In this document: in pieces, positions 29,823 through 58,378 of the stretch | How positions within the stretch are numbered: the stretch's first letter is position 1 | Layout of the letters: each line of letters opens with the position of its first letter | Source: an uncultured Bacteroidales bacterium | Lineage (GTDB): Bacteria > Bacteroidota > Bacteroidia > Bacteroidales > TTA-H9 | DNA: 64,000 bases | Direction of reading: 5' to 3' | Assembly: GCA_964552325.1 (NCBI GenBank) | Contig: CAZKHA010000003.1 | Location: 671-64,670, forward strand | Position numbers and translations under genes: made by a program | The notes under the pieces: generated by a model | Databases searched by the model: none | What the model was told of the DNA's origin: nothing | Seen by the model: only the letters and a program-made list of their open reading frames with translations

Positions 29823-29846
29823 AATTTCCACACTACATGCGTATAA

Positions 29847-29854: not shown

Positions 29855-29893
29855 CGAAAAACTAGCTATGCACCTTGGTAAAAGAAAAAATAT

Positions 29894-29901: not shown

Positions 29902-29919
29902 TATGCTGGCAATTGAAGA

Positions 29920-42609: not shown

Positions 42610-43005
42610 TTACTGGATGCTTGTGTTAACTATCATTATTGGCGGATCTTGGATTGTTTTCTTTACTGCGCAAAGCTCAGCCACCTTAACTAATGATTCT
42701 TTATATTTATCAGGAAATGTGGCTGGTAATTGTATTGTGATCGTAATTTGGCCCATTTTTTTGGCTACAGCGTCCCATTCCATTGTTTGGTCAAGGCTTA
42801 TTCCATCCGTAGAAATGCCTCTTTGGTCGCAAAAGGATTTAACATAAATACCTGCACAGGTGCCTAGTGAAGCCAAAAAAAGATCATAAGGAGCTGGGGC
42901 TGTATTTTCACCTCCCGAATGGCTGGGTTGGTCGGTTTTTATTACATGGCCATTTACATGGGCATTTATCTTCTTGTTTCCCTCGAAAGTGATTTTAATA
43001 TTCAT
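42610..43005 (-). CDS. OsmC family protein
   Basis: 131 aa with GGENTAPAPYDLFLASLGTCAGI and VAELCAV cysteine motifs typical of OsmC/Ohr-like proteins. Confidence 0.8.
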   Translation of the reverse strand: MNIKITFEGNKKINAHVNGHVIKTDQPSHSGGENTAPAPYDLFLASLGTCAGIYVKSFCDQRGISTDGISLDQTMEWDAVAKKMGQITITIQLPATFPDKYKESLVKVAELCAVKKTIQDPPIMIVNTSIQ

Positions 43006-43091: not shown

Positions 43092-43691
43092 TCAATTTCC
43101 TTTAAACAGTAGCTTCGAAATCTTTGATAAGGTTCCTCTTGGCATCGATTTTAGGTAAACCCTCCGACGCGTTACGAGGTCTTTCAATTCATTGAGCATA
43201 TCAGCATTAACTTCTTTTGCTAAAGGGAAAACATATTTCTCGGTTTCATCCAAATAACTGATCATTCTATCATAACCCTTTGCATCTAAATGCAAATCAG
43301 TTAGATTGCTAATTCTATCAGCACACTTTAGGATTTTGGCCTCTTTTGATCCTTCGTTAAGAATTCGGTTGTAAAACTCAATTTTTGACTCACCAGGGCG
43401 TTGTGATACTTCTAATACCAATTTCACGACTTTTTCTTCATCGCCATCATGTATTTTAATGATATCCTCAGTGGAAGCAGCTTCAAAATCTTCGATTAGA
43501 TCGTGAATGGTGGCAGCTTTAAGTAACACTGAATCAATATAATGGTAATCAATAAGAATTACCATGGTTGCCATACAATGCCGGAATTGATTTCCTCCAA
43601 TTTTGCGTTTAACACCTACCAGAGCCCAGGCTTTTTGAATGTAAGGGGCTAGCACTACGGCCGAAAGCTTGTCTTTTTCAGAATTATCCAT
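43092..43691 (-). CDS. HD-domain hydrolase resembling small (p)ppGpp hydrolases (SpoT/Mesh1-type HD)
   Basis: FRHCMATMVIL...AATIHDLIED (H...HD) and KCADRISNL, resembling the KxADRLHNL motif of RelA/SpoT hydrolase domains. 199 aa, with no synthetase domain. Confidence 0.55.
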   Translation of the reverse strand: MDNSEKDKLSAVVLAPYIQKAWALVGVKRKIGGNQFRHCMATMVILIDYHYIDSVLLKAATIHDLIEDFEAASTEDIIKIHDGDEEKVVKLVLEVSQRPGESKIEFYNRILNEGSKEAKILKCADRISNLTDLHLDAKGYDRMISYLDETEKYVFPLAKEVNADMLNELKDLVTRRRVYLKSMPRGTLSKISKLLFKGN

Positions 43692-43816: not shown

Positions 43817-45190
43817 TTATAAGCTCCTGAAAATCAATTTTCCTTGCATTGTATTATCGGGTAAATGATTGTTATTCACAAATTTACCATTAACAACACT
43901 GTGTAGGGGCAAGCCTTGGCTTTCGAAGCCTTCATAAATTGATGTGTCACATGATGATACCTGGTTTTTGGCTGAAATTATTTGGGTTTTGTTGAAGTCC
44001 CATATCACCAAATCTGCATCATACCCAGGGGCTATTCTACCTTTTGAAGTGAGTCCAAAGATGGAAGAAGGGTTTGTGGCCACTAATGCAACTAATTGGT
44101 TTATAGTTATTTTATTGGTTACTACCCCATATTTGTACATTAATTGGATTCGATTTTCAATACCTCCAGCACCATTAGGAATCAAGGTAAAATTGTTGCT
44201 GCCTTTATCTTTTTGGCCCACAAGGTTAAATGGGCAATGGTCAGTGGCAAGGGTTTGGATGGTTTGGTTTTGTATTCCCTTCCACAATGCTTCACTATGC
44301 TCCGAGCTTCGTATAGGCGGGCTAATTACATAAGGCGCTGCTTTAATAAATTCTTGATTATAAACATCTTCGTTCAGCAACAAATACTGAGGGCAAGTTT
44401 CGGAAAATACTTTAATTCCTTTCAATTGAGCATCTTTAATTAAGTCAACTGAACCTTTGGTAGATGTATGGACTATATATACTCGGCAGTTCGTTCGTTT
44501 GGCCAAATCAATTACACGTTCAACGGCAATTGATTCAACTTCGGGTGGCCTGCTCAGCGCATGGTACATAGGTGAGGTTTTGCCCTGACTTAAAAAACGA
44601 TGTTGCAGTCGTTCTATTTCATCACCCTCTTCAGCATGAACTGTAACTACACCACCATGATAACCAACTACCTGCATAATTTTTTCAAGATCAGGAATGC
44701 TTATTCCAATCGAGTTTTTATATGCAAGGTACACTTTAAACGAAGTAATTCCTTCATTTATAATGCAATGCTCAATTTCGAGCTTCAGTTTAGCATCCCA
44801 CCAAGTTACGCCCATATGGAAGCTGTAATCAATTATACTTGCTTGTGCCTCCTGTTTTCTTAACCGCAGGGCTTCGAGCAGCGATTGCCCTTTATTTGGG
44901 GTTACAAAGTCAATTATTGCGGTAGTACCTCCTGCAAGTGCAGCCTTACTACCATTTAAAAAGTCATCACATGAATATCCAGCCGGCGTAGGAAGGTGAA
45001 AATGCACATGTGGGTCAACCCCACCCGGAAGAACCGTAAAACCTGAGGCGTCAACTATTTCAATATCAGATGGTAATTGGCTCCCTAATGGTAACAAATC
45101 CAAAATTTTGCCACCAGAAAGATGTATATGTGCATTTTGGGTACAATCTGCGTTTACAACTAATGCATTGGTTATAATTAAGTTATCCAT
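43817..45190 (-). CDS. hyuA: D-hydantoinase/dihydropyrimidinase-type cyclic amidohydrolase (E. coli HyuA/YgeZ-like)
   Basis: GGVDPHVHFHLP metal motif, SFKVYLAY (carbamylated Lys region), VTVHAE, YIVHTST, ATDHCPF. By eye it is collinear with E. coli HyuA. The start overlaps ssnA by 8 nt. Confidence 0.85.
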   Translation of the reverse strand: MDNLIITNALVVNADCTQNAHIHLSGGKILDLLPLGSQLPSDIEIVDASGFTVLPGGVDPHVHFHLPTPAGYSCDDFLNGSKAALAGGTTAIIDFVTPNKGQSLLEALRLRKQEAQASIIDYSFHMGVTWWDAKLKLEIEHCIINEGITSFKVYLAYKNSIGISIPDLEKIMQVVGYHGGVVTVHAEEGDEIERLQHRFLSQGKTSPMYHALSRPPEVESIAVERVIDLAKRTNCRVYIVHTSTKGSVDLIKDAQLKGIKVFSETCPQYLLLNEDVYNQEFIKAAPYVISPPIRSSEHSEALWKGIQNQTIQTLATDHCPFNLVGQKDKGSNNFTLIPNGAGGIENRIQLMYKYGVVTNKITINQLVALVATNPSSIFGLTSKGRIAPGYDADLVIWDFNKTQIISAKNQVSSCDTSIYEGFESQGLPLHSVVNGKFVNNNHLPDNTMQGKLIFRSL

Positions 45191-46460
45191 TTTGCTGCAT
45201 CAATTTCCAAAGCTTCGTCGAAAGCTTCCTTGATTCCTGGAGTATTACAGTCTCATCAATTTTGGTGGCAACATAATTCTCAACAATTAACTTACCACTT
45301 GAAATAACATGTTGTATATGTCTAGATTCCAGTCCATAAAATACATGACCAACAAAATTGGCACTCGTAACCTCGGTCGGAGAATCATAGTCGAGTACAA
45401 TAAGGTTGTTATCTCCATCACCTATAAAGCCATTTTGGTTAATGTAATGATGCACATTTCGTAACCATTGATAAACCGTAGGCAGTTGGATACCATTTTG
45501 TGCATTTTGCTCGAGCCAAGTAATTCGAGCACTTCTCAGCATATCGCTATGCATTCCATCGGTACCAAGCATTATTTTTTGGCCGATGCCAGTTGGGTTA
45601 AACGAACCAACGCGATTGTTAAGATTACTGTCGGTGTTGATGGCTACATACGTATTTGATAAGCTAATTAGCTCTTTTTCAGTATCTGAAAGATGCAGGC
45701 AATGTGCAAAGATGTTTTTATTGAGTTCAAAAGCGCCAGCATTATAGAGCCGTTCACCTACGCTTTGTTTGTAGTTTTTTTGTGCATCATATTGATCAAC
45801 AGTATCTTCGGCAACATGGATATGGATTCCAGTCTGAAGTTTTGAAGCTAATTCAACTGCATTTTTCAAGGTTTCGTCACCAACCGTAAAGGATGCATGG
45901 AGCCCAACCAGCACTTGATTAATAGCTGAATACGCACGAGTTTCATCAAAAGCTTCCTGGGTTTTGGCATTGCCATACCTATCAGTGATTTCGTAGCACA
46001 ATAAGTGACTAACACCAACTAAATCAAATGCTTGTGCGATAATTTCGAGAGAGCCTTTTAAATAGTTTGGTGAAGCATGATGATCAATAACAAAGGTGCA
46101 TCCCCTTTTAGCACAAGCAATTGCGGTTGTAAGCGCACTTAATTGCACCATTTCGCGTGTTAGGCTTTTATCCAATGGCCACCAAATGTATTTTAAGGTT
46201 TCTTCAAAGTTGCTTGGGGCGATTTTGGGAGGTGTCATTCCTCTAGCCAATGAACTGTAAACATGGTGATGTCCATTGCCAAATGATTTGGTAATGAGCT
46301 TTCCGGTGCAATCAATAATTTGCAAGTTTTTTACAAACTGCAGGTTCTGAGGCTTTTCGAAGAGGATTTTTCCATTCGGGCCTTCCTCAACAAATACGTC
46401 AGCAGTTTTAAACTCCAAAGTTTTCCAGTCAATAAATGTTCCGTTTTTTAAGTGTATCAT
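45183..46460 (-). CDS. ssnA: SsnA-type aminohydrolase (chlorohydrolase/deaminase superfamily)
   Basis: GNGHHHVYSSLARGM, WWPLDKSL, FVIDHHASPNYLKGSL, HIHVAEDTVD and LGTDGMHSDM closely parallel E. coli SsnA. The start overlaps the hydroxylase stop (4 nt). Confidence 0.85.
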   Translation of the reverse strand: MIHLKNGTFIDWKTLEFKTADVFVEEGPNGKILFEKPQNLQFVKNLQIIDCTGKLITKSFGNGHHHVYSSLARGMTPPKIAPSNFEETLKYIWWPLDKSLTREMVQLSALTTAIACAKRGCTFVIDHHASPNYLKGSLEIIAQAFDLVGVSHLLCYEITDRYGNAKTQEAFDETRAYSAINQVLVGLHASFTVGDETLKNAVELASKLQTGIHIHVAEDTVDQYDAQKNYKQSVGERLYNAGAFELNKNIFAHCLHLSDTEKELISLSNTYVAINTDSNLNNRVGSFNPTGIGQKIMLGTDGMHSDMLRSARITWLEQNAQNGIQLPTVYQWLRNVHHYINQNGFIGDGDNNLIVLDYDSPTEVTSANFVGHVFYGLESRHIQHVISSGKLIVENYVATKIDETVILQESRKLSTKLWKLMQQNG

Positions 46461-49000
46461 TTTGTGCGTTTTAAAGGTAATTTATAACGACGAATTCCAT
46501 CATAATTGCATAATGCGTTTGCCACAGCAGCCGCAGTTGGTACTAATCCAATCTCGCCAAGACCTTTTGCTCCATACGGACCAATAGGATCGGCTACTTC
46601 AACGGGAAGTACGTTAATTTCTGGGGTTTCATGGGCTTTCAGAATACCGCAATCTTTTAGTTTTGTGCTCATTAAAAAGCCATTCTCCATTTCAAGGTCT
46701 TCAGTTAGTGCATAACCTAGGCCCATATGCACGGCGCCTTCTATTTGCCCCTCATAAAACACTGGGTTAATGATTTTACCTGCATCATGGGCTGCAACAA
46801 CTTTTTCGATGTTTCCTTGCTCATCCAACACCACTAATTGAGCGGCATAGCCATATGAATAGTGGGTAATTGATTCTTTGGTGAGGTCGCCGGGTTTAGT
46901 GGATTGATCGAACTGCCATCGCGCTTGGTATTTTTTCCCAATTAAGCCTGAAAGCGACTGGTTTTTAAGGTCTTCTTTGAAGGGTATGCAAGCTTCTTTT
47001 ATCGCATTGCCCAATAAAACGGTTGCTCTTGATGATGTCGTCATTCCGGTTTTTATGCCTGAAGCGGTATCTGTTTTAACTTCAATAAGTTGGGGGTCAA
47101 GCCCGGTTTCATGGCACAGGAACTGGATAGCCATGGTGTAGATTCCTTGTCCCATTTCGGTCCAGCCTTGGTGCAAAATAATCTTGGTTTCGGATTCAAT
47201 TTCAATGATAACATCCGAATAATCAATCATTCCATTACCAATACCACTATTTTTAATTCCGCAGGCTAATCCTGAGAAAGTGGCGTCAAGATAAAAGGGT
47301 TTCAGGGCATCTAGGCAAGCACGTATCCCAGCACCTTGCACTTTTTGGCCTGTGGCTGTTGTCAATCCATCCACCAATGCATTATCGTATCGGAATTGCC
47401 AATGATCGAAGCCTCCTTTTTTACAAAGTTCGTCCACGCAGCCTTCCAATGCAAAAGCAACTTGGTTAGCACCAAATCCGCGCATTGCTCCTGATGGAAT
47501 ATTGTTGGTATAAACGGTTAAGGCCTCCAAATCAATAACTGGTACATAATAGCCTCCTGTAGCATGTCCTGCAACACGTTCCATAACTTTTGTACCTACC
47601 GATGCATACGCGCCCGTATCGCCTATTGCCCTTAATTTAAGAGCAGTAAGCTTACCATTTAAATCACAGCTTAAAGTAATATCCATCCAAACTGGATGGC
47701 GTTTTGGATGCATACGAATGGATTCGGGCCGTGAGAGCGTTACCTTGACAGCTTGTTTAAGGGTAAAAGCGAACATAGCTGCATGTCCTTGAACACTCAA
47801 ATCTTCTTTACCACCAAAACCTCCGCCATTTGGCACAAGTATAACACGAATATTTGTTTCGGCAATGCCCAAAAGGCTTGCCAATTGTCGTTTATCTTCA
47901 TAAATGCCTTGTCCAGAAGAATATAACAAAATACCATCGGCCTCAGGCATTGCCACAGCCGATTCTGTTTCCATAAAGGCATGTTCAATTCGTTGGGTTT
48001 GGTATGATCCCGTTGCAACAAAAGCAGAGGATTTGATGGCACTAGCAGCATCACCTTTCCTCAAAATGCAGCTATCAAGTAAGTTGGCATGGTGATTATG
48101 CACTTGAATAGCATCCTTTTTGAGTGCAGCATGTACATCTGTAACAGCTTCAAGTACCTCATAATCAACTTTTATAAGGGAAACAGCCAATCTAGCTACT
48201 TTTTCGGTACTGGCTACCACACCAGCCAAAACATCGCCAATATAGTTGGTTATTTCGCCCGGTGCAATCATCAATGGCCAGTCATCGTATATTAAACCTG
48301 TGGTACGTTTTCCGGGTACATCCTTGGCTGTAAATACCTTAACAACTCCTTCAAGTTTTAACGCTTCTGAATAATCAATTGATATTACTTTTGCCCTTGG
48401 ATAATCGCTGAATTTTAGCGCACCATAAAGCATATTGTTGAATTTAAGGTCGTTAACAAACCTGCGTTTCCCTAAAGCTGTTTCAAAGGCTTCGTATTTT
48501 GGGTAGAAATTACCAACATTAGCGGCAGTAGTTTTATGTGGTTGAGCATCTCCTTTTGCCAATACTACCACCGATTCTTCAATCTTTTTGTAACCCGTGC
48601 ATCGGCAAAGATGTGACTTCATCGATGCCCTAATCTGATCGAGATTGGGGTTTGGATTGGTTTGCAATAAGTTCCTAATTCGCATGATGAAACCGGGAGT
48701 GCAAAATCCACATTGCACAGCGCCTTTTTCTACCATTACCCTGGCAATTTCATTCTTGATAGGGTCTGGAATTCCTTCAAGCGTAAACACCTCAGCGTTA
48801 TGTAACTTTTTAAGCGGCGTAACACAGCTTAAAGTCGGTTTGCCGTTAATCTCAACCGTGCAAGCACCACAGGCAGCTTGTGCTGAGCAGCCATCCTTTG
48901 CGGCAATTAAGTCCTTTTCTTCCCGTATAAATGACAAAAGGCTGATGGATTCATCACCTTCGTAGGTAATGGTTTCGCCATTGAGTCTAAAACTAATCAT
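46457..49000 (-). CDS. Single-chain molybdenum hydroxylase: 2x[2Fe-2S] fused to a xanthine-dehydrogenase/aldehyde-oxidase molybdopterin domain (XdhD / 'Se-dependent Mo hydroxylase 1'-like), no FAD domain
   Basis: CSAQAACGACTV and CGFCTPG...CRCTGY Fe-S motifs. a/b-hammerhead region, GGGFGGKE, and C-terminal MoCo-binding region (GLGEIG). 847 aa with an architecture like D. gigas aldehyde oxidoreductase. Confidence 0.85.
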   Translation of the reverse strand: MISFRLNGETITYEGDESISLLSFIREEKDLIAAKDGCSAQAACGACTVEINGKPTLSCVTPLKKLHNAEVFTLEGIPDPIKNEIARVMVEKGAVQCGFCTPGFIMRIRNLLQTNPNPNLDQIRASMKSHLCRCTGYKKIEESVVVLAKGDAQPHKTTAANVGNFYPKYEAFETALGKRRFVNDLKFNNMLYGALKFSDYPRAKVISIDYSEALKLEGVVKVFTAKDVPGKRTTGLIYDDWPLMIAPGEITNYIGDVLAGVVASTEKVARLAVSLIKVDYEVLEAVTDVHAALKKDAIQVHNHHANLLDSCILRKGDAASAIKSSAFVATGSYQTQRIEHAFMETESAVAMPEADGILLYSSGQGIYEDKRQLASLLGIAETNIRVILVPNGGGFGGKEDLSVQGHAAMFAFTLKQAVKVTLSRPESIRMHPKRHPVWMDITLSCDLNGKLTALKLRAIGDTGAYASVGTKVMERVAGHATGGYYVPVIDLEALTVYTNNIPSGAMRGFGANQVAFALEGCVDELCKKGGFDHWQFRYDNALVDGLTTATGQKVQGAGIRACLDALKPFYLDATFSGLACGIKNSGIGNGMIDYSDVIIEIESETKIILHQGWTEMGQGIYTMAIQFLCHETGLDPQLIEVKTDTASGIKTGMTTSSRATVLLGNAIKEACIPFKEDLKNQSLSGLIGKKYQARWQFDQSTKPGDLTKESITHYSYGYAAQLVVLDEQGNIEKVVAAHDAGKIINPVFYEGQIEGAVHMGLGYALTEDLEMENGFLMSTKLKDCGILKAHETPEINVLPVEVADPIGPYGAKGLGEIGLVPTAAAVANALCNYDGIRRYKLPLKRTK

Positions 49001-50238
49001 AAGAGGCTGTATTGTAAGTAATTATCAAGTGCGGTTGGAGTTGGTTCAATGGGTTCGGGTAGTTTAACTGCATTTAAAGCGGTCTTGAGGTCTTTTAATC
49101 CACTGCCTGTTAATAGTACAAGAGCACGAGAACCGTCTTTAAGTTGATTTTCGGTTTTGAACTTTAAAAAGCCCGCGTATGCTGCTGATGCAGCAGGCTC
49201 TGCAAATATGCCAGTGGTTTTGGCTAACAAACTCGAAGCTATAACTATTTCATGATCAGAAACATTAATTGCTTCTCCATTGTATGTCAGCAAGAATTTC
49301 TTAGCCATAAGGAAGTTCCTTGGAATATCAACCGAAATAGAATCTGCAAGGGTGGTTGCTGGTTCGTAAGCGAATGAATTACGTGTTAAATTGGTGTTCA
49401 AGTTGCAGCTTTGCGCAGATTGAACAGACACTATAGTCGGAATTTTTGATATTACACCAAGCTTCAATAAGTCTTCAAAGCCTTTATAAACACCTGCAAT
49501 AATTACTCCATCTCCCACAGGTACAAATATATAGTCGGGCAAATGCTCGCCAAAACGGTCGAAAATCTCAAAAGCAACGGTTTTTTTTCCTTCGATTGTA
49601 AACGGATTGTAAGCAGTGTTACGGTTATGCCAGCCAAAAATTTCGGTTGCCTTTAAACTAAGGTCGAATGCCCTGTCATAATTTCCTTTAACAAGCACAG
49701 GAATAGCTCCATACATAATTATTTGGACCAGTTTGGCCGACGGCACATTTTCTGGAACAATTATCACGGCTTTTTGACTTTGAGAGGCGCAAATACCTGC
49801 CAAAGAAGAACCGGCATTGCCTGTGGAAGCAGCAACTAAAATGTTGAGATCGTTTTCTTTGGCATAAGCTGAAACCAGCGCAGAAGCCCTGTCCTTAAAC
49901 GAGAAAGTTGGGTTTTGCGAATCGTCTTTAATAAAAAGTTCCACATTGGTGGATGCATCAATACTATAAACAGGGGTTTGTCCAACCCTAAGGTAACCAA
50001 AACTTTGCAATGATTGAATCGGCAATAAGTCGATAAACCCAGCTTGCTTTAACGAATTCCAGGTACTGGTTTGGTTTAAGGCTTTGATTTTATTGTAATT
50101 ATATACAGTTTTGAGTACACCAGCCGGAGGTTGGCCGTCTTTGTTCAGAGCAGCACATTTGGGGCAGAGGTACAAAAAGTTATCCGTATAAACTGCACCA
50201 CAATCTGTGCATTCAAAATGGTACTTAAGGCTGGGCAT
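48997..50238 (-). CDS. Threonine-synthase-like fold-type-II PLP enzyme with N-terminal zinc ribbon (function unassigned)
   Basis: CTDCG...CPKC ribbon, PLP-lysine motif FSFKDRAS, glycine loop ASTGNAGSSLAG. 413 aa. The stop overlaps the hydroxylase start (ATGA). Confidence 0.7.
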   Translation of the reverse strand: MPSLKYHFECTDCGAVYTDNFLYLCPKCAALNKDGQPPAGVLKTVYNYNKIKALNQTSTWNSLKQAGFIDLLPIQSLQSFGYLRVGQTPVYSIDASTNVELFIKDDSQNPTFSFKDRASALVSAYAKENDLNILVAASTGNAGSSLAGICASQSQKAVIIVPENVPSAKLVQIIMYGAIPVLVKGNYDRAFDLSLKATEIFGWHNRNTAYNPFTIEGKKTVAFEIFDRFGEHLPDYIFVPVGDGVIIAGVYKGFEDLLKLGVISKIPTIVSVQSAQSCNLNTNLTRNSFAYEPATTLADSISVDIPRNFLMAKKFLLTYNGEAINVSDHEIVIASSLLAKTTGIFAEPAASAAYAGFLKFKTENQLKDGSRALVLLTGSGLKDLKTALNAVKLPEPIEPTPTALDNYLQYSLL

Positions 50239-50249
50239 AACAAAAAGGT

Positions 50250-51716
50250 TTAGCTTAGTACGTCTGCATTAAAGGCTTCTATAAGCTCATCCCATCTGGC
50301 GGCTTGATTAAATAAACTAGGCCAAATGTTTTCGTCATACCATAATTGATTGATTTCATCTACCGTTTTGCCTTGTTGTTCAACCCATGTAAAGTATTTT
50401 AGGTTGTGTATTGCTTTACGGTCTTGATAACTAAGCTCTTTCATGTAATCAATTCCTGTTCCAAGCAGGCAGCGTTCATGGTCTTTACCGGCTTGCATCA
50501 AGGTATAGGTACCATTTTGTTCGCTAAGTTCGCTTAATCTTGATTGATACATTTCCATGCTGTCGGTAGCAATGGTTATTAGTACATCATTTTCATTCAA
50601 TTCAAAATACTTCGCTTGTTTTATGGCTCCAAGCAGGTTGGCCACGCCCGAGATTCCAATTTGAGCTAGGCTCTTGATGTATTCAGGTTCTAAGCCGCAC
50701 TCTGTCAGGTATTTAATGCCTTCAGGTTCGTTAAATAGTCGGATAATGCGCATGCAGTCCTCATCATCGATGGCAGTAACCAAATCGGTATTTTTAATAT
50801 TGTGCACCCAAGGTATATGCTTATCACCAATACCTTCGATACGGTGAGCACCAAAGCCGTTTTGCAATAAGGTCGGGCATTGCAAGGCTTCGGAAGCTGT
50901 TACTTTTATGTGAGGGAATTTCGTTTTTAGATAATCACCTGCGGCAATTGTACCAGCTGAACCAGTGTTGGATACAAAGCCAGCGAAGCGGCTAGAGGGT
51001 GTGCGCAATAGGTTGTAAATATCCTCGATGGCAGGGCCTGTTACATTATAATGCCAAACAGGGTTACCAAATTCGTCAAACTGGTTCAAAATGATGCAAT
51101 CAGGCCTTGTAGCCCGCATATGGTTACATTCGTCATAAATCTCCTTTACATTCGATTCACAACCTGGTGTTGCAATAATTTCAGAACCAATGCTTTTAAG
51201 CCATTCAAAACGTTCACGGCTCATTTCTTGCGGCAAGATGGCCACTGCCGTTACACCCATCAAATAGGAGTCAAAAGCTCCACCACGGCAATAATTGCCT
51301 GTTGATGGCCAAACTGCTTTATGATAGGTTGGATCGAAACCGCCTGTAATAATGCGTGGAGCCAAGCAACCATAGGCTGCACCTACTTTGTGAGCACCTG
51401 TAGGGAACCATTTTCCAAGCATCAATACAATCCGAGCCTTAACACCACTAATCGCTTCAGGAATTTCGATGTAATTTCCATTGCCATATAATCCCCCAAA
51501 GGGTTTGGCTTCATTTTTCCATGAGATTCGGAATAGGTTTGCAGGGTCTCTATCCCATAAACCTGTGGTTTTGAGTTTGTTTTTGATGGATTCAGGTATC
51601 AGTTCTGGGTTGCGCATTTGAGCAAAGGTAGGGAGCAGAATTCCCTTTTCTTTGAAACGTTTTACGGCTTTACTTCTGATTTCGTTATTAATAACGTGGT
51701 CAATTGTGGTTATCAT
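50250..51716 (-). CDS. Fold-type-II PLP-dependent enzyme (TrpB/CysK superfamily) with long C-terminal extension (function unassigned)
   Basis: The FPTGAHKVGAA lysine motif resembles the TrpB HTGAHK motif. STGNYCRGGA and NTGSAGTIAAG loops. 488 aa. Sits 12 nt after ygfK and 11 nt before the ThrC-like gene. Confidence 0.6.
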   Translation of the reverse strand: MITTIDHVINNEIRSKAVKRFKEKGILLPTFAQMRNPELIPESIKNKLKTTGLWDRDPANLFRISWKNEAKPFGGLYGNGNYIEIPEAISGVKARIVLMLGKWFPTGAHKVGAAYGCLAPRIITGGFDPTYHKAVWPSTGNYCRGGAFDSYLMGVTAVAILPQEMSRERFEWLKSIGSEIIATPGCESNVKEIYDECNHMRATRPDCIILNQFDEFGNPVWHYNVTGPAIEDIYNLLRTPSSRFAGFVSNTGSAGTIAAGDYLKTKFPHIKVTASEALQCPTLLQNGFGAHRIEGIGDKHIPWVHNIKNTDLVTAIDDEDCMRIIRLFNEPEGIKYLTECGLEPEYIKSLAQIGISGVANLLGAIKQAKYFELNENDVLITIATDSMEMYQSRLSELSEQNGTYTLMQAGKDHERCLLGTGIDYMKELSYQDRKAIHNLKYFTWVEQQGKTVDEINQLWYDENIWPSLFNQAARWDELIEAFNADVLS

Positions 51717-51728
51717 TGTTGTAAGAAA

Positions 51729-54700
51729 TTAGTTTTTACTTTCGTGGATATAAAGATGTTGCATACCTTCGAGCAGGACCATCAAGGTGGCTGCATTTTC
51801 AAAAAAGGCTGTTTTTACACATGGAACGCGTATTTCTACGGTTTTTAAGGAAAAATCGTTGCTGTGGAATTTTGCCAAAACCTCCTCGGTCTCATAGATG
51901 TATTCGTCTTTTTGTAAAGTCAAGGTTGTAAATCGCTCCTTATTTTTTTGGATAATGGTAGTTTTGCTCGGCAAGGTACTTATAAAGTAACCATTAGTAG
52001 CGTTGTTAAAGGATTTAATGCTCAGGAAAAAGTGTGGTTTTTCTTTGTAAGGAGCTGAATTACTGGGGCAAAATGTATTGCAATTCCCACATTCGTTGCA
52101 GAAATCGGCCAAATGGGCAATTTGGTGGTCTTGTTTAACTTCAAAGTGTTTATCGAAGCTAAGTACAATTTCATCTCCTTTTTTCTCGGCCTTTTGCAAT
52201 GCGATGGATCTTGTGGGTAATTGATAGGAATAATTGGCAAAGTTAGGGCAAACACTCACACATACATTACAGATTTTGTGGCAAAGCAAACAGCGGGATG
52301 CTTCGCTCATGGCCTCTGCTTGGGTGTTAATTACGGGCACTTGCTCGTCAATTTTTTTGTTAGCTACCATTAACGGACTTGTTCCCCGTTTGGCTTTTTT
52401 TATCAATAGATCTTGAACATCAATGTTGTAGTCAAATTTTATTGGCTGATTTAGGGTTAATCCAGCGGCTTGTTGTATTTGTTTAGCTGCTTTGCGTCCA
52501 TCGGCTATTGCCGAAATAATGTTGGATGCACCTTTACGTGCGTCGCCACCAATAAACACTCGGCTGAGCTTGGTTGCGTAGGTATCTTTTTCGGTAAGTA
52601 GTTGAGTATTATCAATAAAATTTATCGCAACTTCTTGGCCAATAGCGGGGAATACCAAATCTGCTTCTCGTACAAATTCAGAGCCTTCAATGGGCAGTGT
52701 GAGCAAACGTTTTTGTTGATAACTTCCAGAGGCTTGCATTTTGATGAACTTTAATCCGCTTACTTCACCAGATTTTGTAAGGATCTCGGTAGGGCTTACC
52801 ATTTCAATAAGATCTATCCCTTCAGCTAAGGCTGCCAAAATTTCTTCCGGTTCGGCAGGCATATCTTGTTTACGCCTTCTATAGGCTATGGTTACCTTGG
52901 CATCGGGTTGTGCGTATTTTTTAGCGGTTCGGGCCACATCCATGGCAGTGTTTCCACCACCAATTATAATAATCTGTTTGGCAGTTAATTGATAAGGATT
53001 TTCTTTGATTTTACTCAAAAAATCGAGTGGGTCCATTATCCCTTTTGCATCTTCGTTTGCTAAATTAAGTTTTCGTGTAATTGTAGCACCCGTAGCAATG
53101 TAAATGTAACTACCTGATTCATATACTGTTTTAAATAGTTGTGAATCTACCGTAACGCCATATTGTATTTTTACACCGCTTGCCATTATCCGATCTAAGT
53201 CGAGTTGAGTTTGTGCTTTACCGATTCTAAATGAGGGAATTACCTCAGCTACCATTCCACCGGCAAATGTTTTTTGTTCAAGAACCGTAACATCGAATCC
53301 AGCTAGGCGCATAAAGTAGGCACACGACAAACCCGAGGGACCTGCACCAATCACAGTTACTTGTCCTTTTGTAAAATCTTGATTGTATTTTTGAGGGGTA
53401 TGTTTTTGGTTTTCAGCAACAAAGCGTTTAACTTCACGAATGGCCAAAGCATTATCATAGTTAATGCGTGTACATTTCGATTGGCACTCGTGATCACATA
53501 CATTGCCCGTAATGATGGGTAATGGATTGGTTTGCAAAATTACCTCGTAGGCTTTCTGAAAATCTCCTTGAGCCGTATAATACATATAATCAGGGATGCC
53601 TTGATGCGAAGGACAGGTTGAAACACAGGGAGCGTGTATGCAATCGAAATAGTCGAGAGGTCTATTTACTTTAATATCAGGTTCTTTAAAGGCTTTTTGA
53701 TAATAAGGGTCATTACAAACAGCAGTACTGTAAGCATCTAAATTGCTTAGGTGGTTTTGGGATATGAACTGTGATAAGTTTTCACATTTTTGTTCATCAA
53801 GGGTTTGGTAAATGGCTTCAATATATTGATGTATTCTTGCGTAGCCACCGGGCTTTAAAAGATCGGAACAAACGGTTACAGGCGAGAGACCACACGATAG
53901 CACTTTGGAGATGTTTTGATAATCAATGCCAGCCGAAAAAGATATAGATAAGCTTTCTTTTATATCGTTGGAAATTTTATTGGCAACTGCAATTGATATT
54001 GGATGTAAAGACCTGCCACTCATATACATGTGTGGTTCGCTTTCTGGCAAAATATCCTTGTTGTTTAAACTTTCAAGCGTATTGGTAAGCTTTATGCCAA
54101 ATTCAACCCCTTCATTTTGCGCCAATAACCTTAAGCGGTTAAGAATTCCAATGGCATCCGCGTATTTTAAATCATGTTCAAAGGCAATATCCGGTACTTC
54201 GGTCTTGAAACCCAGCTTGTTGTTTAAGATTTCGGTAAGTTTTTCTTTACCCAGTAGGGTAGGGTTAAGTTTGATAACAGTATGCAGATTTTTAGTCGCA
54301 ATCAAATACTGCCCAATGCGTTCAATTTCATCGGGTGGACAACCGTGCATGGTTGAAAGCGTAATGTTATTTGAAATACGATCTGGAATAGTAATTTGCT
54401 CAATTTCTGGTACTAAATGCTTAATCTCCTTGATTTTGGCATCCTTCTCTGACTTGCAATCCTTCATTTTCTCAAAAAACCATTGCACATTTTGGTTTAG
54501 AATGCCTTCGAGGTTATACCCCACACTCATATTAAAAATTGTACCAATGGGCACATTGTTGTTTTTATTGAACCTAAAGTTCAGAATATGAATAATAATC
54601 CACGCATTTAGATACTGCTCAAACGATTCGTGTATTTTTAACTCTTGTGACCATTCGCAATTATAACCCTCATCCTGCATGTCGATACAAGGTTTCGTAA

Positions 54701-54977
54701 CATTCAATTCATCAAGGGTTTGAACGGTTTTAAGTTCAATAAAGCGGGCGCCACATAACCATGCCCCAACAATGTTTTGGGCAAGTTGCGAGTGGGGTCC
54801 GGCTGCAACACCTATTGGAGTATGCAAAGCTTGCTTAAAGTGCGTAGTAAATAACCTTGGGTCGTTTTGGGTAAAGAATCTTTCCGAAGGAATCCCAAAA
54901 TAAGTTCCGTTTTTCAATTGATTTAGTATTAAACCAAGTAAACGGTCGAGTGGTATTATTGAAAATGAATCAGTCAT
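51729..54977 (-). CDS. ygfK: YgfK-type large flavo-iron-sulfur oxidoreductase ('putative selenate reductase subunit YgfK' family)
   Basis: 1082 aa. N-terminal DHOD/DPD-like TIM-barrel region, Cys clusters (CIHAPCVSTCP; CDHECQSKCTR), GltD-like VTVIGAGPSGLSCAY and IIIIGGGNTAMDVA Rossmann folds. C-terminal 2x[4Fe-4S] ferredoxin (CLLCHKICNVCVSVCP; CNECGNCNTFCP). Confidence 0.85.
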   Translation of the reverse strand: MTDSFSIIPLDRLLGLILNQLKNGTYFGIPSERFFTQNDPRLFTTHFKQALHTPIGVAAGPHSQLAQNIVGAWLCGARFIELKTVQTLDELNVTKPCIDMQDEGYNCEWSQELKIHESFEQYLNAWIIIHILNFRFNKNNNVPIGTIFNMSVGYNLEGILNQNVQWFFEKMKDCKSEKDAKIKEIKHLVPEIEQITIPDRISNNITLSTMHGCPPDEIERIGQYLIATKNLHTVIKLNPTLLGKEKLTEILNNKLGFKTEVPDIAFEHDLKYADAIGILNRLRLLAQNEGVEFGIKLTNTLESLNNKDILPESEPHMYMSGRSLHPISIAVANKISNDIKESLSISFSAGIDYQNISKVLSCGLSPVTVCSDLLKPGGYARIHQYIEAIYQTLDEQKCENLSQFISQNHLSNLDAYSTAVCNDPYYQKAFKEPDIKVNRPLDYFDCIHAPCVSTCPSHQGIPDYMYYTAQGDFQKAYEVILQTNPLPIITGNVCDHECQSKCTRINYDNALAIREVKRFVAENQKHTPQKYNQDFTKGQVTVIGAGPSGLSCAYFMRLAGFDVTVLEQKTFAGGMVAEVIPSFRIGKAQTQLDLDRIMASGVKIQYGVTVDSQLFKTVYESGSYIYIATGATITRKLNLANEDAKGIMDPLDFLSKIKENPYQLTAKQIIIIGGGNTAMDVARTAKKYAQPDAKVTIAYRRRKQDMPAEPEEILAALAEGIDLIEMVSPTEILTKSGEVSGLKFIKMQASGSYQQKRLLTLPIEGSEFVREADLVFPAIGQEVAINFIDNTQLLTEKDTYATKLSRVFIGGDARKGASNIISAIADGRKAAKQIQQAAGLTLNQPIKFDYNIDVQDLLIKKAKRGTSPLMVANKKIDEQVPVINTQAEAMSEASRCLLCHKICNVCVSVCPNFANYSYQLPTRSIALQKAEKKGDEIVLSFDKHFEVKQDHQIAHLADFCNECGNCNTFCPSNSAPYKEKPHFFLSIKSFNNATNGYFISTLPSKTTIIQKNKERFTTLTLQKDEYIYETEEVLAKFHSNDFSLKTVEIRVPCVKTAFFENAATLMVLLEGMQHLYIHESKN

Positions 54978-55145: not shown

Positions 55146-55802
55146 ATGATAGAATATATGGAGAACTTTTCCACCGCTACAAAGCATTTGAATGCGGATA
55201 ATAGTGCAGTGCTTGTGTTGGCAGCTGGTAGGAGCCAACGGATGGGAAGCCCCAAATTTGCCTTGCAATTTACAAATAAACAGTCTTTTTTAGAGCGTAT
55301 TATCACTATTTACAGTAGTTTGCGTTTTGGGCAGATACTGGTTGTTATAAATTCTGATGATTGCAAGCATTCAATCTTATCGCATATCAAAGAACACTAT
55401 GGGCATATCCAAATTGTTGTAAATGAATATCCTGAAAAGGGTAGGCTTTATTCTGTTCAATTGGGTCTGTGCCAACTGACCAAACCTTTTTGCTTCGTAC
55501 AAAATGTTGATAATCCATTTATTAGCGAAAACGTGTTGAACAAGCTATTGGTTGAAAGCAACCCGTTCAGAATAGTAATGCCATGTTTTCAGGATAAAAA
55601 TGGTCATCCGATAGTTATTCCTGAACGTTATCACCAAGGTATTGTTAATGAATTAGCTACAGAAACTACGCTTAAAAAATGCCTTTCAGGCTTTCAAAAG
55701 CAACAGATAGAAGTGGATGACGAAAGTATTCTGCTAAACTTGAATACCCCAATGGATTATCAGCACTATTTTGGCCATCCACCCCTTCCTTGCATTGGAT
55801 AA
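55146..55802 (+). CDS. mocA: MobA-like NTP transferase, probable molybdenum cofactor cytidylyltransferase (MocA/YgfJ-like)
   Basis: VLAAGRSQRMGSPKFAL nucleotide-binding motif; ~200 aa. It is the only plus-strand gene inside the island. The start could be 55146 or the ATG at 55158 (MENFS). Confidence 0.65.
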   Translation: MIEYMENFSTATKHLNADNSAVLVLAAGRSQRMGSPKFALQFTNKQSFLERIITIYSSLRFGQILVVINSDDCKHSILSHIKEHYGHIQIVVNEYPEKGRLYSVQLGLCQLTKPFCFVQNVDNPFISENVLNKLLVESNPFRIVMPCFQDKNGHPIVIPERYHQGIVNELATETTLKKCLSGFQKQQIEVDDESILLNLNTPMDYQHYFGHPPLPCIG

Positions 55803-55814: not shown

Positions 55815-57005
55815 TTATTTTTTAACCCGTTGTATATTAGCGGCTTTTAAACGCGATAATAAATCGGCGGGGTTTTGGAAACGATTTGTAAGCATCATCG
55901 CAGCAATGATATATGGTTTATAACCAGCTTCTTTATAAGTTGCAATGCGATATTGTTCAAACACTTCGGCTGAAACCTCACCTTTTTTGCACGAAACATC
56001 TGTAATATCGGCAGGCAAGCAGTGCATATAAAGCGCTTTTCCGTGTTTGGTAAGGTTCATTTTTGTGCGGTCGCATTCCCAGTTTTGGTAGCGTGCATTA
56101 TTTGCAAGGCATTCTTTTTCGAGGCTCTTTAAACCATCTCGGTCGCTATTCTTCAAGAGTTCGGTCCTGCGTTCCATAACATGGAAGGGTGCCCAACTTT
56201 TAGGGTAAACAATGTCAGCGCCGTTAAAAGCTTCTTCCATCGAATTGACCACATTAAAGCTGCCACCGTATTGTTTTGCATGATTTTGAGCAACTTGTGT
56301 TATTTCTGGGATTAAGCCATACCCTTCGGGATAAGCCAGCGAAACATCCATACCCATGCGGGTCATCAATGTAATAATGCCTTGAGGAACCGATAGCGGC
56401 TTCCCATAACTGGGTGAATAGGCCCATGTCATCGCAATTTTCTTTCCTCTTAAAGCTTCCAACGACCCGAATTCATTGCGCAAATGCAATAAATCGGCCA
56501 TGGCTTGGGTGGGGTGATCTTGATCGCACTGCAAGTTTACGATACCCGGACGTTGTGGCAAAACACCGTTTGCAAATCCGTCTTCTAAAGCATCGGCAAC
56601 TTCTAGCATATACGAATGCCCTGCACCAAGGTACATGTCGTCGCGAATCCCGATTATTTCGGTTAAAAACGAAATCATGTTGGCTGTTTCGCGCACTGTT
56701 TCGCCATGCGAAATTTGTGACTTTTCTTCGTCCATGTCCTGAACCGTGAGCCCTAATAGATTGGAAGCGAATGCAAACGAGAAGCGTGTGCGGGTGGAGT
56801 TATCACGGAATTGAGAAACGGCTAAGCCAGATTCAAAGCACTTGGCTGAAATGTTCTGAGCATATAGAAACTTCAATGCTTCAGCAACCTGCATAACAAG
56901 CTCTAACTCTTGTTGTGTTTTATCCCAAGTTAACAGAAAGTCTTTATTAAAAAGATTGGCGTTTGTAGCTTCTATGTTTTGAATAAGCTGTTTGAAATCT
57001 TGCAT
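55815..57005 (-). CDS. ygeW: Knotted carbamoyltransferase YgeW
   Basis: 396 aa. FRDNSTRTRFSF, SQISHGETVRETANMISF, LQCDQDHPTQAMADL, WAYSPSYGKPLSVPQG and YMHCLPAD are nearly collinear with E. coli YgeW as I recall it. Confidence 0.9.
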   Translation of the reverse strand: MQDFKQLIQNIEATNANLFNKDFLLTWDKTQQELELVMQVAEALKFLYAQNISAKCFESGLAVSQFRDNSTRTRFSFAFASNLLGLTVQDMDEEKSQISHGETVRETANMISFLTEIIGIRDDMYLGAGHSYMLEVADALEDGFANGVLPQRPGIVNLQCDQDHPTQAMADLLHLRNEFGSLEALRGKKIAMTWAYSPSYGKPLSVPQGIITLMTRMGMDVSLAYPEGYGLIPEITQVAQNHAKQYGGSFNVVNSMEEAFNGADIVYPKSWAPFHVMERRTELLKNSDRDGLKSLEKECLANNARYQNWECDRTKMNLTKHGKALYMHCLPADITDVSCKKGEVSAEVFEQYRIATYKEAGYKPYIIAAMMLTNRFQNPADLLSRLKAANIQRVKK

Positions 57006-57038: not shown

Positions 57039-58244
57039 TTATGATTCGTTGCTTAGTGAAAATGCAAACATGGTATAAAATGCCGATGCTACAACTAAGT
57101 CGTTTACAGGGACTTTTTCGTTGGGGGCATGGGCCATTACTTCGTTGCCGGGACCAAAACCAATAGTTGGTATTTTATGCATGCCATTTATGGCGACTCC
57201 GTTGGTTGAAAAGGTCCATTTATCAACTCTGGGCGCAGCACTATATAATAATGTATAGGCTTCAATACCTTTTTGAACTATTTCTGATGACTCTTCAATT
57301 TTCCAAGTAGGATAATACTTTTCCATACCATAATTCAAGCCTGTAAAGGCCTTTCCTTCGTAATACAGTACGCTAGCTTCGGCGTCGCTGCCAATTAGTT
57401 GGCTTACTTCATCCAAGGCACTTTGTTTGGTTTCGCCCCAGGTGAGCCTACGGTCAAGGTGCAAACGTGCAAAATCGGCCACAGCACAAAGTGATGGGCT
57501 GCCCGAAACAAATTCGGAAATCGTAACCGAGCCCTTGCCTAAGAAATCATCGTGTTTAAGTCGCTCGTTCAACTTTTCTACTTCCAAGGCAGCTTTTGAT
57601 GCGCTGTAAATGGCGTTTTTGCCACGTTCGGGTGCTGAACCATGTGCTGAAATACCCTTAAATGAAACGCTAATCTCCATGCGACCACGATGTCCGCGAT
57701 ACAATCCGAGATTGGTAGGTTCTGTGCTAATTACAAAGTGGGGCACAATTTTCTCTTCTTCAATAATATACTTCCAGCAAAGGCCATCACAATCTTCCTC
57801 CATAACGCTTGCTACAAAATATATTGTTAAGTCATTGGGGACGCCCAATTCTTTGATGATTTTACCGGCAGTTATAAATGAGGCTATGCCACCTTTTTGG
57901 TCAACTGTTCCGCGGCCATGTACAAATCCATCCGAGATTGCGCCCGAAAACGGATCAGAAGTCCAATTGGTAATATTCCCTACATCCACCGTGTCAATAT
58001 GACCATCGATAGCTAGGATTGTTTTTCCACTGCCAATGCGCCCGATTACATTTCCCAGGCCATCCATTCTAACTTCATCAAAACCAGCTTCTTTCATAAG
58101 TTGCATGGCTAATGCTTGTACGTTGGCCTCTTCGCCGCTGAGCGATTTTACTTTTACAAGTTCCGAAAGGTTTTTTGCAGTGTAATCTCTATAAAGCTTA
58201 GATAACTCATTTATTTTTAATGCAATAGAAGTTTTAATATCCAT
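57039..58244 (-). CDS. ygeY: YgeY-type M20/DapE-family metallohydrolase ('putative selenium metabolism hydrolase')
   Basis: 401 aa. DGHIDTV, RGTVDQKGG, EEDCDGLCWKYIIEE, YRGHRGRMEI, HGSAPERGKNAI, DRRLTWGE, KWTFSTNG and AHAPNE parallel E. coli YgeY. Confidence 0.9.
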   Translation of the reverse strand: MDIKTSIALKINELSKLYRDYTAKNLSELVKVKSLSGEEANVQALAMQLMKEAGFDEVRMDGLGNVIGRIGSGKTILAIDGHIDTVDVGNITNWTSDPFSGAISDGFVHGRGTVDQKGGIASFITAGKIIKELGVPNDLTIYFVASVMEEDCDGLCWKYIIEEEKIVPHFVISTEPTNLGLYRGHRGRMEISVSFKGISAHGSAPERGKNAIYSASKAALEVEKLNERLKHDDFLGKGSVTISEFVSGSPSLCAVADFARLHLDRRLTWGETKQSALDEVSQLIGSDAEASVLYYEGKAFTGLNYGMEKYYPTWKIEESSEIVQKGIEAYTLLYSAAPRVDKWTFSTNGVAINGMHKIPTIGFGPGNEVMAHAPNEKVPVNDLVVASAFYTMFAFSLSNES

Positions 58245-58294
58245 TATTAAGTGGTTTTAGGTGCTTGATTCAAAATTTTTTAGAAAAAGGACAC

Positions 58295-58302
58295 CAAAGT
58301 TA
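58295..58302 (-). promoter_or_regulatory. Candidate -7 box (TAACTTTG) for ygeY-ygeW
   Basis: TAnnTTTG match on the minus strand, 51 nt upstream of the ATG at 58244. Confidence 0.4.
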
Positions 58303-58362
58303 CGGACTTTATTCGCAGAATGTTTTTTTTGCAAAAACTTGTTGTGCAATTGGGTTTGTTCC

Positions 58363-58370
58363 TACATTTG
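58363..58370 (+). promoter_or_regulatory. Candidate -7 box (TACATTTG) for the adhesin-like gene
   Basis: TAnnTTTG match only 9 nt before the ATG at 58379, implying a very short or absent leader. Confidence 0.3.
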
Positions 58371-58378
58371 TTCGACCT

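Follow-up and report, generated by a model that had tools for sequence, protein, structure and literature searches.

The stretch of DNA analysed here (the window) comprises 64,000 nt from an uncultured Bacteroidales bacterium (GenBank assembly GCA_964552325.1, contig CAZKHA010000003.1, positions 671 to 64,670 of the forward strand) and carries a purine catabolic gene cluster whose core holds two pyridoxal 5′-phosphate (PLP) enzymes of 488 and 413 aa, designated PLP488 and PLP413. The genes of the cluster are listed by window position, with the scores of the family models that identify them.

43817..45190, minus strand: hyuA, D-hydantoinase/dihydropyrimidinase (TIGR02033, 474 against a cut-off of 393)
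45183..46460, minus strand: SsnA-like amidohydrolase, ring opening (NF005540, 336, below the cut-off of 444)
46457..49000, minus strand: selenium-dependent hydroxylase of the xanthine dehydrogenase (XDH) type with fused iron-sulphur and molybdenum parts (TIGR03311, 852 against 830)
48997..50238, minus strand: PLP413, 413 aa, PLP enzyme of threonine-synthase fold with an N-terminal Cys4 zinc ribbon
50250..51716, minus strand: PLP488, 488 aa, extended fold-type-II PLP enzyme resembling cysteine synthase (CysK) and cystathionine beta-synthase (CBS)
51729..54977, minus strand: ygfK, 2,8-dioxopurine (yanthine) reductase homologue, first gene of the operon (TIGR03315, 891 against 835)
55146..55802, plus strand: mocA/ygfJ-like molybdenum cofactor cytidylyltransferase, divergent from ygfK (TIGR03310, 100, below the cut-off of 186)
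55815..57005, minus strand: ygeW, knotted carbamoyltransferase (NF005538, 682 against 453; 66% identical to E. coli YgeW)
57039..58244, minus strand: ygeY, M20 ureido-hydrolase (NF009555, 501 against 321; 50% identical to E. coli YgeY)

The layout therefore reads ygeY-ygeW / mocA / ygfK-PLP488-PLP413-XDH-ssnA-hyuA, and the divergent arrangement of mocA and ygfK recurs in many related loci. Read along the minus strand, the TAA of ygfK is followed after 12 nt by the ATG of PLP488, whose own TAA lies 11 nt from the ATG of PLP413; the stop codon of PLP413 and the start codon of the hydroxylase gene share an ATGA overlap, and the XDH/ssnA and ssnA/hyuA genes overlap too. Because these junctions are tight or overlapping and all lie on the same strand, the region from ygfK to hyuA is, judged by spacing, a single tightly packed transcription unit. 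A consensus scan of the operon for promoters and terminators, a procedure ill-suited to Bacteroidota promoters, gave the same counts as shuffled controls. The reading frame lengths, gaps and overlap that a preliminary description of this DNA had reported, together with the motifs FPTGAHKVGAA in PLP488 and CxxC...CxxC and FSFKDRAS in PLP413, were all confirmed from the sequence.

To which pathway does this island belong? The reductive (2,8-dioxopurine) urate pathway was defined in 2025 (Li et al., PMC12507026; Liu et al., bioRxiv 10.1101/2025.04.24.650524). According to these two studies, XdhD or XdhAC converts urate to 2,8-dioxopurine, whose ring is then reduced by YgfK or UacX; SsnA and HyuA carry out ring opening to 2,3-diureidopropionate; YgeW (with the carbamate kinase YqeA) or UacY, plus YgeY, lead to 2,3-diaminopropionate (DAP); and in the final step YgeX turns DAP into pyruvate, DAP building up in ygeX mutants. 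The known cluster genes are xdhD-ygfM or xdhAC, ygfK/uacX, ssnA, hyuA, ygeW(+yqeA)/uacY, ygeY and ygeX. In the window, YgfK, an XDH-family hydroxylase, an SsnA-like protein, HyuA, YgeW and YgeY are encoded together and, by this gene content, the island is a Bacteroidota version of the reductive urate cluster. With MocA added, these are the proteins that it shares with the E. coli/Clostridium cluster, most of them above curated cut-offs. The window YgfK is 36% identical to E. coli YgfK across ~1040 aa (tblastn) and the SsnA-like protein shares 31% identity with its E. coli counterpart; with TIGR03314 it scores 298 (cut-off 455.5) and so stays under both curated SsnA cut-offs, which marks the enzyme of ring opening, too, as divergent in this variant.

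The window differs from the E. coli/Clostridium cluster in its Bacteroidota host, in a hydroxylase of the TIGR03311 type that is merely 24% identical to E. coli XdhD, in the two additional PLP enzymes between ygfK and the hydroxylase, and in the absence from the window of YgeX, YqeA, YgfM and YqeB/C. Indeed, E. coli K-12 YgeX, YqeA, YqeB, YqeC and YgfM, used as tblastn queries, found no counterpart in the 64-kb window, the sole YgeX signal being a local match (26% over 101 aa) onto PLP413 itself, and a family scan of the other large window reading frames found no carbamate kinase, the genes there being those of sensor kinases, glycosidases, DNA-repair proteins and others. Both searches bear out the preliminary description, which had noted that YgeX and a carbamate kinase were missing. 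Neither 2025 pathway paper discusses Bacteroidota or extra PLP enzymes, and our literature search found no account of either PLP family, of the pair, of albizziin lyases or of a Bacteroidota form of the cluster. The island is best regarded as a variant form of this known pathway that includes two unassigned enzyme families.

Is the association of the two PLP genes with this cluster a peculiarity of one genome? PLP488 was searched against 185,579 species genomes, and the window proteins were mapped onto the loci recovered in this and in a metagenome scan (loci carry L-numbers and proteins P-numbers). The genome scan returned 80 loci at 67-75% identity, 79 of them with a full-length PLP488, all from Bacteroidota-type metagenome-assembled genomes (MAGs) save one labelled Ignavibacterium; the nearest relatives are Bacteroidales MAGs, with a PLP488 that is 75% identical. 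Within two genes of PLP488 lie PLP413 in 57, ygfK in 53 and XDH in 39 of the 79 loci, ssnA, hyuA, ygeW and ygeY are present wherever the flanks extend far enough, and the gene order ygfK-PLP488-PLP413-XDH-ssnA-hyuA is maintained in dozens of Bacteroidota genomes.

The pair is also found in the purine clusters of other lineages. In candidate division KSB3 a run of genes reads ygeY, aminotransferase, PLP413, hyuA, ygeW, PLP488, with ygfK and two XDH systems alongside, and its PLP413 is 42% identical to that of the window and has the same motifs. In the metagenomic locus L119 the order is hyuA, ygeW, tetR, XDH, PLP413, PLP488, ygeY, ygfK, ssnA, ssnA, xdhD; YgeW and YgeY are here 65% and 73% identical to their E. 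coli counterparts, and the pair, placed between XDH and ygeY, sits in the ygeW-to-ygeY segment that holds ygeX in E. coli. L095, L096 and L103 resemble L119 in coding for YgeW, YgeY, XDH and SsnA and, where the stretch reaches, for HyuA and a YgfK- or UacX-type reductase (in L103, a UacX-type enzyme in place of YgfK), and L095 and L096, like L116 and L129, count as further non-Bacteroidota purine clusters. These metagenomic loci come from a second PLP488 clade that the scan brought up, 55-63% identical to the window protein, whose commonest PLP488 neighbours are PLP413 (21 loci) and a hydantoinase (10 loci), with reductases at 3 loci. A recurrent arrangement of the same clade, pattern A, comprises an ornithine transcarbamylase (OTC)-like carbamoyltransferase, a carbamate kinase, a Bmp-type ABC transporter, PLP413, a family 2 glycosyltransferase (GT2; L155:6970-7935), PLP488, a ~190-aa protein and a D-hydantoinase. 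The PLP413/PLP488 pair is, therefore, a module that reaches well beyond Bacteroidota, and in the second clade it often shares its locus with a carbamate kinase. The preliminary description had argued from gene spacing that both enzymes belong to the pathway, and the co-occurrence with ygfK, ssnA and ygeW in other genomes, the preserved gene order and the pair in clusters of other lineages all speak for it; we regard the membership of both genes as very probable.

Could PLP413 and PLP488 nonetheless be an ordinary threonine synthase and an ordinary cysteine synthase, housekeeping enzymes that have ended up in the island by chance? Public labels of their homologues say as much, and the fold of PLP413 is indeed that of threonine synthase (ThrC). 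Both proteins are PF00291 fold-type-II PLP proteins by Pfam, PLP413 with 207 bits. Its zinc ribbon is C10xxC13...C25xxC28 and its lysine motif FSFKDRAS spans residues 112-119, with an invariant PLP lysine, K115; the best Foldseek matches of its AlphaFold model (pLDDT 89) are the ThrC of Aquifex, Thermus, Bacillus and Mycobacterium (E ~1e-29). With ThrC (TIGR00260, NF006050; 1UIM, 2ZSJ, 6CGQ, 2D1F) it shares, besides the fold, the SFKDR motif, the STGN loop and EGxKT, at 30-32% identity. Nevertheless, PLP413 falls under every curated ThrC cut-off (TIGR00260, 154.1 against 167.1; NF006050, 191 against 303; NF004170, 193 against 421), and its context is catabolic, not that of a thr operon.

The differences extend to the active site. 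PLP413 was aligned to four solved ThrCs, in T. thermophilus numbering, and the changes were checked in 77 family members (53 genomic, 23 metagenomic and that of KSB3). In this alignment the ThrC motif ASTGNT(S/A) becomes ASTGNAG in PLP413, NPxR(L/I)EGQKT becomes NPFTIEGKKT and PVGNAGN becomes PVGDGVI, so that T88, R160 and N188 of T. thermophilus ThrC correspond to A142, T214 and D243, N154 and S155 being kept as N207 and T208. A142, D243 and the PLP lysine are invariant in 77/77 members and position 214 is T, M or L, never the Arg that the nearest ThrC-type family (NF006050, e.g. the L090 protein) retains. The first three zinc-ribbon cysteines are invariant as well, the fourth residue being C, D or H, and PLP413 has two acidic residues, Asp299 and Asp304, that are extra in comparison with ThrC. 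We take T88, N154, S155, R160 and N188 to be the ligands of the phosphate of O-phosphohomoserine, a role that they reportedly have and that our literature look-up did not confirm.

Why, then, are these proteins called threonine synthases? Some PLP413 orthologues pass TIGR00260, which accounts for the public names: those of KSB3 and of pattern A reach 177.5 and 181.7 against the cut-off of 167.1, a point in favour of a housekeeping role. These two orthologues top the equivalog cut-off though they have no equivalents of Arg160 and Thr88. In NCBI and JGI records the PLP413 family is over-annotated as 'threonine synthase' and the PLP488 family as 'cysteine synthase' (L089:6011-7168; L155:5714-6970; P0124-P0240).

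For PLP488, the resemblance is to CysK. The preliminary description had called this protein TrpB-like; the TGAHK lysine motif (FPTGAHKVGAA, residues 104-114) justifies the comparison, and the remainder of the protein is like CysK, CBS and beta-cyanoalanine synthase, not TrpB. The same description had assigned it a C-terminal extension of ~130 aa. The core spans approximately residues 90-392 and is followed by a C-extension of ~95 aa (~395-488) and preceded by a conserved N-extension that runs from residue 1 to ~75-90. The PF00291 score is 57 bits, and the best NCBIfam match is cysK with 105.9 against a cut-off of 350.95 (TIGR01139), TIGR01136 giving 100.1 against 344.15. The closest PDB sequences and folds are CysK, beta-cyanoalanine synthase and the CBS core (4AEC, 3VBE, 8SRT), at 21-26% identity, over the middle region only and with a TM-score of ~0.53 on the query; the AlphaFold model, with a pLDDT of 83 and a pTM of 0.88, groups with CysK/beta-cyanoalanine synthase as that of PLP413 does with ThrC. 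Among 35 homologues, K110, S138-T139-G140-N141, Q212, G252-S-A-G-T256 and S356 are invariant, which supplies the PLP lysine, the S/T-G-N loop, the glutamine for the carboxylate, the glycine-rich (G-x-G-G-T) phosphate loop and the serine at the pyridine nitrogen of CysK. By its residues, PLP488 retains all the elements for binding PLP and the carboxylate of an alpha-amino acid and for forming aminoacrylate.

The entrance of the pocket, in contrast, differs from that of CysK: its Asn loop is STGNYCRGG, in which R144 is invariant, and GDKH(I/V)PW replaces GAGFIP at the lid, so that R144 and D298-K299-H300 are extra invariant polar or cationic residues. The two extensions are conserved as strongly as the core and persist in relatives down to 35% identity, and by sequence they have no significant match in the PDB. 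With 488 aa and with ygfK, PLP413 and hyuA as neighbours, PLP488 is unlike CysK, which has ~300-320 aa and belongs to the cys regulon. Taken together, a housekeeping pair would have to be reconciled with scores of both window proteins under all curated cut-offs, with three ThrC positions (their phosphate-ligand role being presumed) changed in every PLP413 member, with ~170 extra conserved residues in PLP488 at 23-26% identity to CysK, and with neighbours that are purine or ureide catabolic genes, never thrA/thrB or cysE. We consider such a pair hardly credible, and the possibility raised from the outset that one of the two is a plain ThrC or CysK orthologue fails on cut-offs, residues and neighbours alike.

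The PLP488 family is compact: a search of 1.84 billion representative proteins at E<=1e-30 yields no more than 344 clusters (50% identity). Gene fusions were considered as a clue to function and discarded, the long representatives being frameshifted or chimeric predictions. A full-length homologue of 562-571 aa (P0243/P0510; 44-46% identity) is found in Aduncisulcus paluster, an anaerobic eukaryote of the Metamonada, where it could reflect lateral gene transfer or contamination. In six loci (L041, L046, L062, L076, L077, L080; family U4/F10) a divergent regulator of the Lrp/AsnC type lies immediately upstream of PLP488, which would fit regulation by an amino-acid intermediate.

Do the two enzymes take the place of YgeX? 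YgeX, or DpaL (NF006058, TIGR03528), is like PLP413 a fold-type-II PLP enzyme, and the two alternate at the same operon position, at the same end of the pathway. In L040, L071 and L075, PLP413 is absent and PLP488 is present, and the gene that follows PLP488, or one in the operon of overlapping genes to which it belongs, codes for a protein of the YgeX type (414-454 bits with NF006058, whose cut-off is 276; 36-40% identity to the E. coli enzyme). Across the genome loci, PLP413 alone occurs in 60, YgeX alone in 3 and both in none. This alternation, together with the fact that the PLP413/PLP488 pair contains the sole PALP enzymes in the 8 kb fetched on either side of the otherwise complete purine clusters L095, L096, L103 and L119, suggests that PLP413 is a DAP ammonia-lyase analogue, a non-orthologous replacement of YgeX, which by a small balance of probability we favour. 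By family models PLP413 and PLP488 are distinct from YgeX: NF006058, TIGR03528 and TIGR01747 are not among the NCBIfam matches listed for PLP488 or for PLP413 (for the latter, the best 25 of 35), and a PLP413 orthologue scores 74 with NF006058, far from the cut-off of 276. By the features tested, then, the pair is neither ThrC, CysK nor YgeX. The idea of the preliminary description that the two enzymes replace YgeX finds good support for PLP413, through the exchange seen in L040, L071 and L075, and not for PLP488, which stays beside YgeX there and in a further locus, L127. Because PLP488 persists whether its neighbour is PLP413 or YgeX, it is not the replacement of the DAP lyase and has a role separate from it.

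A model of the pathway end can be drawn from these data. By orthology to E. coli and Clostridium, the XDH-type hydroxylase and YgfK would reduce the purine, SsnA and HyuA would open the two rings to give 2,3-diureidopropionate, and YgeW and YgeY would strip the carbamoyl groups. PLP413 would then bind DAP through its alpha-amine as an external aldimine and abstract the alpha-proton; elimination of the beta-ammonium would follow, and the aminoacrylate released would give pyruvate and NH3. A cationic beta-substituent would fit a pocket in which small or acidic residues (A142, T214, D243 and, besides these, D299 and D304) replace the presumed phosphate ligands of ThrC. PLP488 could catalyse a further beta-elimination or beta-replacement, its substrate being a beta-N-substituted alanine taken by neither YgeX nor PLP413. 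The added invariant Arg, Lys and His residues of its pocket argue for a ureido group over an ammonium, and we would name, with weak commitment, the mono-ureido amino acid albizziin as the favoured substrate, probably in its D form since R stereochemistry has been proposed for the intermediates, or else the other stereoisomer. That PLP488 acts on a ureido or other beta-N-substituted alanine is a tentative suggestion from its residues, with the chances rather against it. In its general form the model sees in PLP413 and PLP488 a conserved PLP module of two enzymes, in charge of the C3 amino-acid end in a variant of the reductive urate/purine pathway, and it stands, to our mind, an even chance of being right.

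Several observations weigh against this model. We infer every substrate and reaction assignment for PLP413 and PLP488 from sequence. One lyase would be enough for DAP, and the need for PLP488 is left without explanation. The catalytic residues of YgeX are reportedly Lys77, Asp120 and Asp189; in a MAFFT alignment the lysine is conserved and Asp120 and Asp189 face T139 and N207 of PLP413, so that a convergence of PLP413 on the catalytic aspartates of YgeX, which we had considered, is dropped. Urea leaves poorly, and for the hydrolysis of albizziin the cluster already has YgeY. The two 2025 pathway papers disagree on whether albizziin is formed as an intermediate in the first place. The exclusivity of PLP413 and YgeX, which holds in the genome set, is not strict and is broken by the metagenomic locus L127, where PLP413, PLP488 and YgeX lie in a row. 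Finally, 48 of the 74 metagenome loci with PLP488 homologues of the 55-63% clade have no recognisable purine genes, many of them being on short contigs.

One alternative, whose diversion part the preliminary description had already raised, is that the two enzymes lead the pathway to another product, or that they act in two steps or as a heteromer, either with PLP488 converting DAP or albizziin to serine or cysteine that PLP413 then deaminates, or with a racemase followed by a stereospecific lyase. The adjacency of the two genes in several lineages, in either order and sometimes with just the GT2 gene between them, would be in keeping with this, as would the PLP488-like genes next to a ThrC-type gene in L090 and to another PALP gene in L088, and CysK-type enzymes are typical catalysts of beta-replacement. 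ThrC and CysK families act on L-substrates. For the intermediates, a D (R) configuration has been proposed, and according to a review of the pathway the order of ureido cleavage and the stereochemistry of the last steps are still disputed; CuyB/CuyA provide a precedent for the logic of a racemase and a D-lyase. Nevertheless, PLP488 persists next to YgeX homologues that keep Asp120 and Asp189 (the L075 protein), and since such a YgeX should take both enantiomers of DAP, a racemase is not needed beside it. The known fold-type-II racemases, moreover, belong to the threonine-dehydratase branch, not to the CysK branch, and a route from DAP through serine to pyruvate has no evident advantage. We consider the diversion or two-step scheme unlikely.

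The distant relatives of PLP488 lead to a different alternative. In Alphaproteobacteria, a homologue of 47% identity is encoded in a cluster of a GntR regulator followed by PxpA, the PLP protein, CoA-transferase A and B subunits, an F420-dependent luciferase-like monooxygenase (LLM) and an ABC transporter; the cluster adjoins a divergent Mo hydroxylase and, in one case, F420 biosynthesis genes. These Hyphomicrobiales loci (L082:3564-14287, L083:9194-14260, L084), with a Mo hydroxylase of the carbon monoxide dehydrogenase (CODH)/XDH family beside them, a transporter of the branched-chain type and cofC/D/E/GH in L082, look like an uncharacterised F420-dependent catabolic pathway for an N-heterocycle or a lactam. 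At L092:4153-9386, a UacX-like DHO_dh/Fer4 reductase and a Se-XDH-like hydroxylase are followed by the PLP488-like P0276 and an aminotransferase; P0276 has lost the Schiff-base lysine (K to Q) and the S-T-G-N loop, and is probably, by these residues, a pseudo-enzyme retained in a purine-type context. Other distant relatives lie beside a MoaA-like radical SAM gene (L085), besides the ThrC-type and PALP neighbours of L090 and L088 already mentioned.

PLP488 might thus be an accessory or partner of the hydroxylase and the ring reductase (serving, for instance, as a scaffold, as a regulatory subunit like CysK in its moonlighting complexes, or as a sulphur or selenium helper for the Mo cofactor), and PLP413 alone would replace YgeX. 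That ygfK and PLP488 stay together in Bacteroidota loci whose other cluster genes have a different location (L021, L045, L060) would fit this proposal, as would the reductases and Mo hydroxylases next to the distant relatives (L092, the alphaproteobacterial LLM cluster and the radical SAM locus L085) and the L092 member, which cannot be a normal PLP catalyst without its Schiff-base lysine and Asn loop; besides, the pathway review points out that the hydroxylase has an accessory protein or electron donor yet to be identified. The 55-63% clade points the other way, its PLP488 genes adjoining PLP413 or a hydantoinase much more often than a reductase, and the Bacteroidota and alphaproteobacterial clades hold the full catalytic set with a mean column identity of 77%. 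Insertion of Mo=S or Mo=Se is normally the task of fold-type-I desulfurases, or of SelD with YqeB/C, which also counts against a helper function, and neither YgfK nor XDH has a conserved C-terminal tail for a partner. An accessory role is, in our view, distinctly unlikely. A tail that inserts into PLP488, as that of CysE does, was likewise looked for and rejected, the YgfK and XDH tails not being conserved and PLP413 ending in Ile in only 17 of 53 orthologues. These 17 (e.g. L005, L012, L020, L029) end in ...FLK(D/G)KI, reminiscent of the CysE tail, and the window protein ends in ...YSLL.

Has the absence of a carbamate kinase, which the preliminary description had pointed out, a special meaning? 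None was found in the 80 related genome loci. At least 8 metagenomic loci hold the PLP pair and a carbamate kinase, usually beside an OTC-like carbamoyltransferase, and the kinase is encoded away from the cluster in C. sporogenes and Collinsella; for both reasons its absence is not distinctive. The loci with pair and kinase also dispose of the notion that PLP488 offsets the missing kinase, which its position after ygeW in KSB3 and on the P0241 contig had suggested.

What follows for the reductive urate pathway? Returning to the module that handles its C3 end, a more specific version holds that PLP413 and PLP488 are two new families forming a dedicated ureide/purine pair, a ThrC-derived DAP lyase and a CysK-like enzyme with an undescribed reaction; PLP488 would then be, for instance, a urea-releasing D-albizziin lyase or a heteromeric catalytic partner of PLP413. 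We regard this version as doubtful. If true, it would reveal an unrecognised 2,8-dioxopurine branch in environmental Bacteroidota, KSB3 and other lineages, and would bear directly on the order of ureido cleavage and on its stereochemistry. The final step of the pathway is probably not universal, given that a large set of mostly environmental bacteria have the conserved PLP pair where E. coli and clostridia use YgeX. The cluster is now placed in Bacteroidota, whose gut isolates had been scored as non-consumers of urate (an earlier screen of human gut isolates found it 'notably absent in Bacteroidetes'), and the reductive pathway is being pursued for gout probiotics. A systematic mis-annotation as 'threonine synthase' and 'cysteine synthase' is also exposed. 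In this respect, Li et al. (PMC12507026) scored 'YgeX' neighbours by Pfam PF00291; this domain cannot tell YgeX from PLP413 or PLP488, and surveys of YgeX by PF00291 or by BLAST therefore misjudge the completeness of the pathway. The two enzymes are compact, highly conserved and easily expressed targets, and candidate substrates are in hand (D- and L-DAP, albizziin and 3-amino-2-ureidopropanoate).

Some further features of the clusters deserve mention. In pattern A, the hydantoinase is followed by four co-oriented reading frames of ~531, 213, 465 and 402 aa without a Pfam or NCBIfam match (L155:11473-16303), and at least three loci (L155, L113, L098) have a comparable series of sizes behind the hydantoinase (~531-538, 465-474 and 396-402 aa); the four may be uncharacterised catabolic enzymes. 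In the Bacteroidota clusters L004-L064, small inserts that are absent from the window (a 23S-rRNA-IVP/bAvd-like protein, a Bro-N domain protein and IS200-type transposases; families U1/F6, U2/F7 and U5/F14) occupy the XDH/ssnA gap or lie between the two PLP genes. Just upstream of ygfK, seven Bacteroidota loci (L023, L027, L028, L063, L066, L073, L078; family U3/F8) carry a gene of ~157 aa with a cytidine/dCMP-deaminase fold, possibly a guanine deaminase, and a similar gene is found near the alphaproteobacterial cluster (L083:20189-20665).

In the window itself, hyuA is followed on the same strand by a 199-aa protein with a faint HD-domain match only (43092-43691, minus strand); the conserved small neighbours of ~190-214 aa, this protein (HD199) and families F0 and F2, are mutually unrelated and without a Pfam match. 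Further downstream come an OsmC-like protein (42610-43005, minus strand) and a GT2 glycosyltransferase (41337-42560, minus strand), a different GT2 from the one that splits PLP413 and PLP488 in pattern A. At the other end, a 636-aa protein with an IgGFc-binding domain (58265-60175, plus strand) stands head-to-head with ygeY. Hybrid sensor histidine kinases are unusually many in the window, with at least five large ones within 4998-9453, 26241-31620 and 36619-39399.

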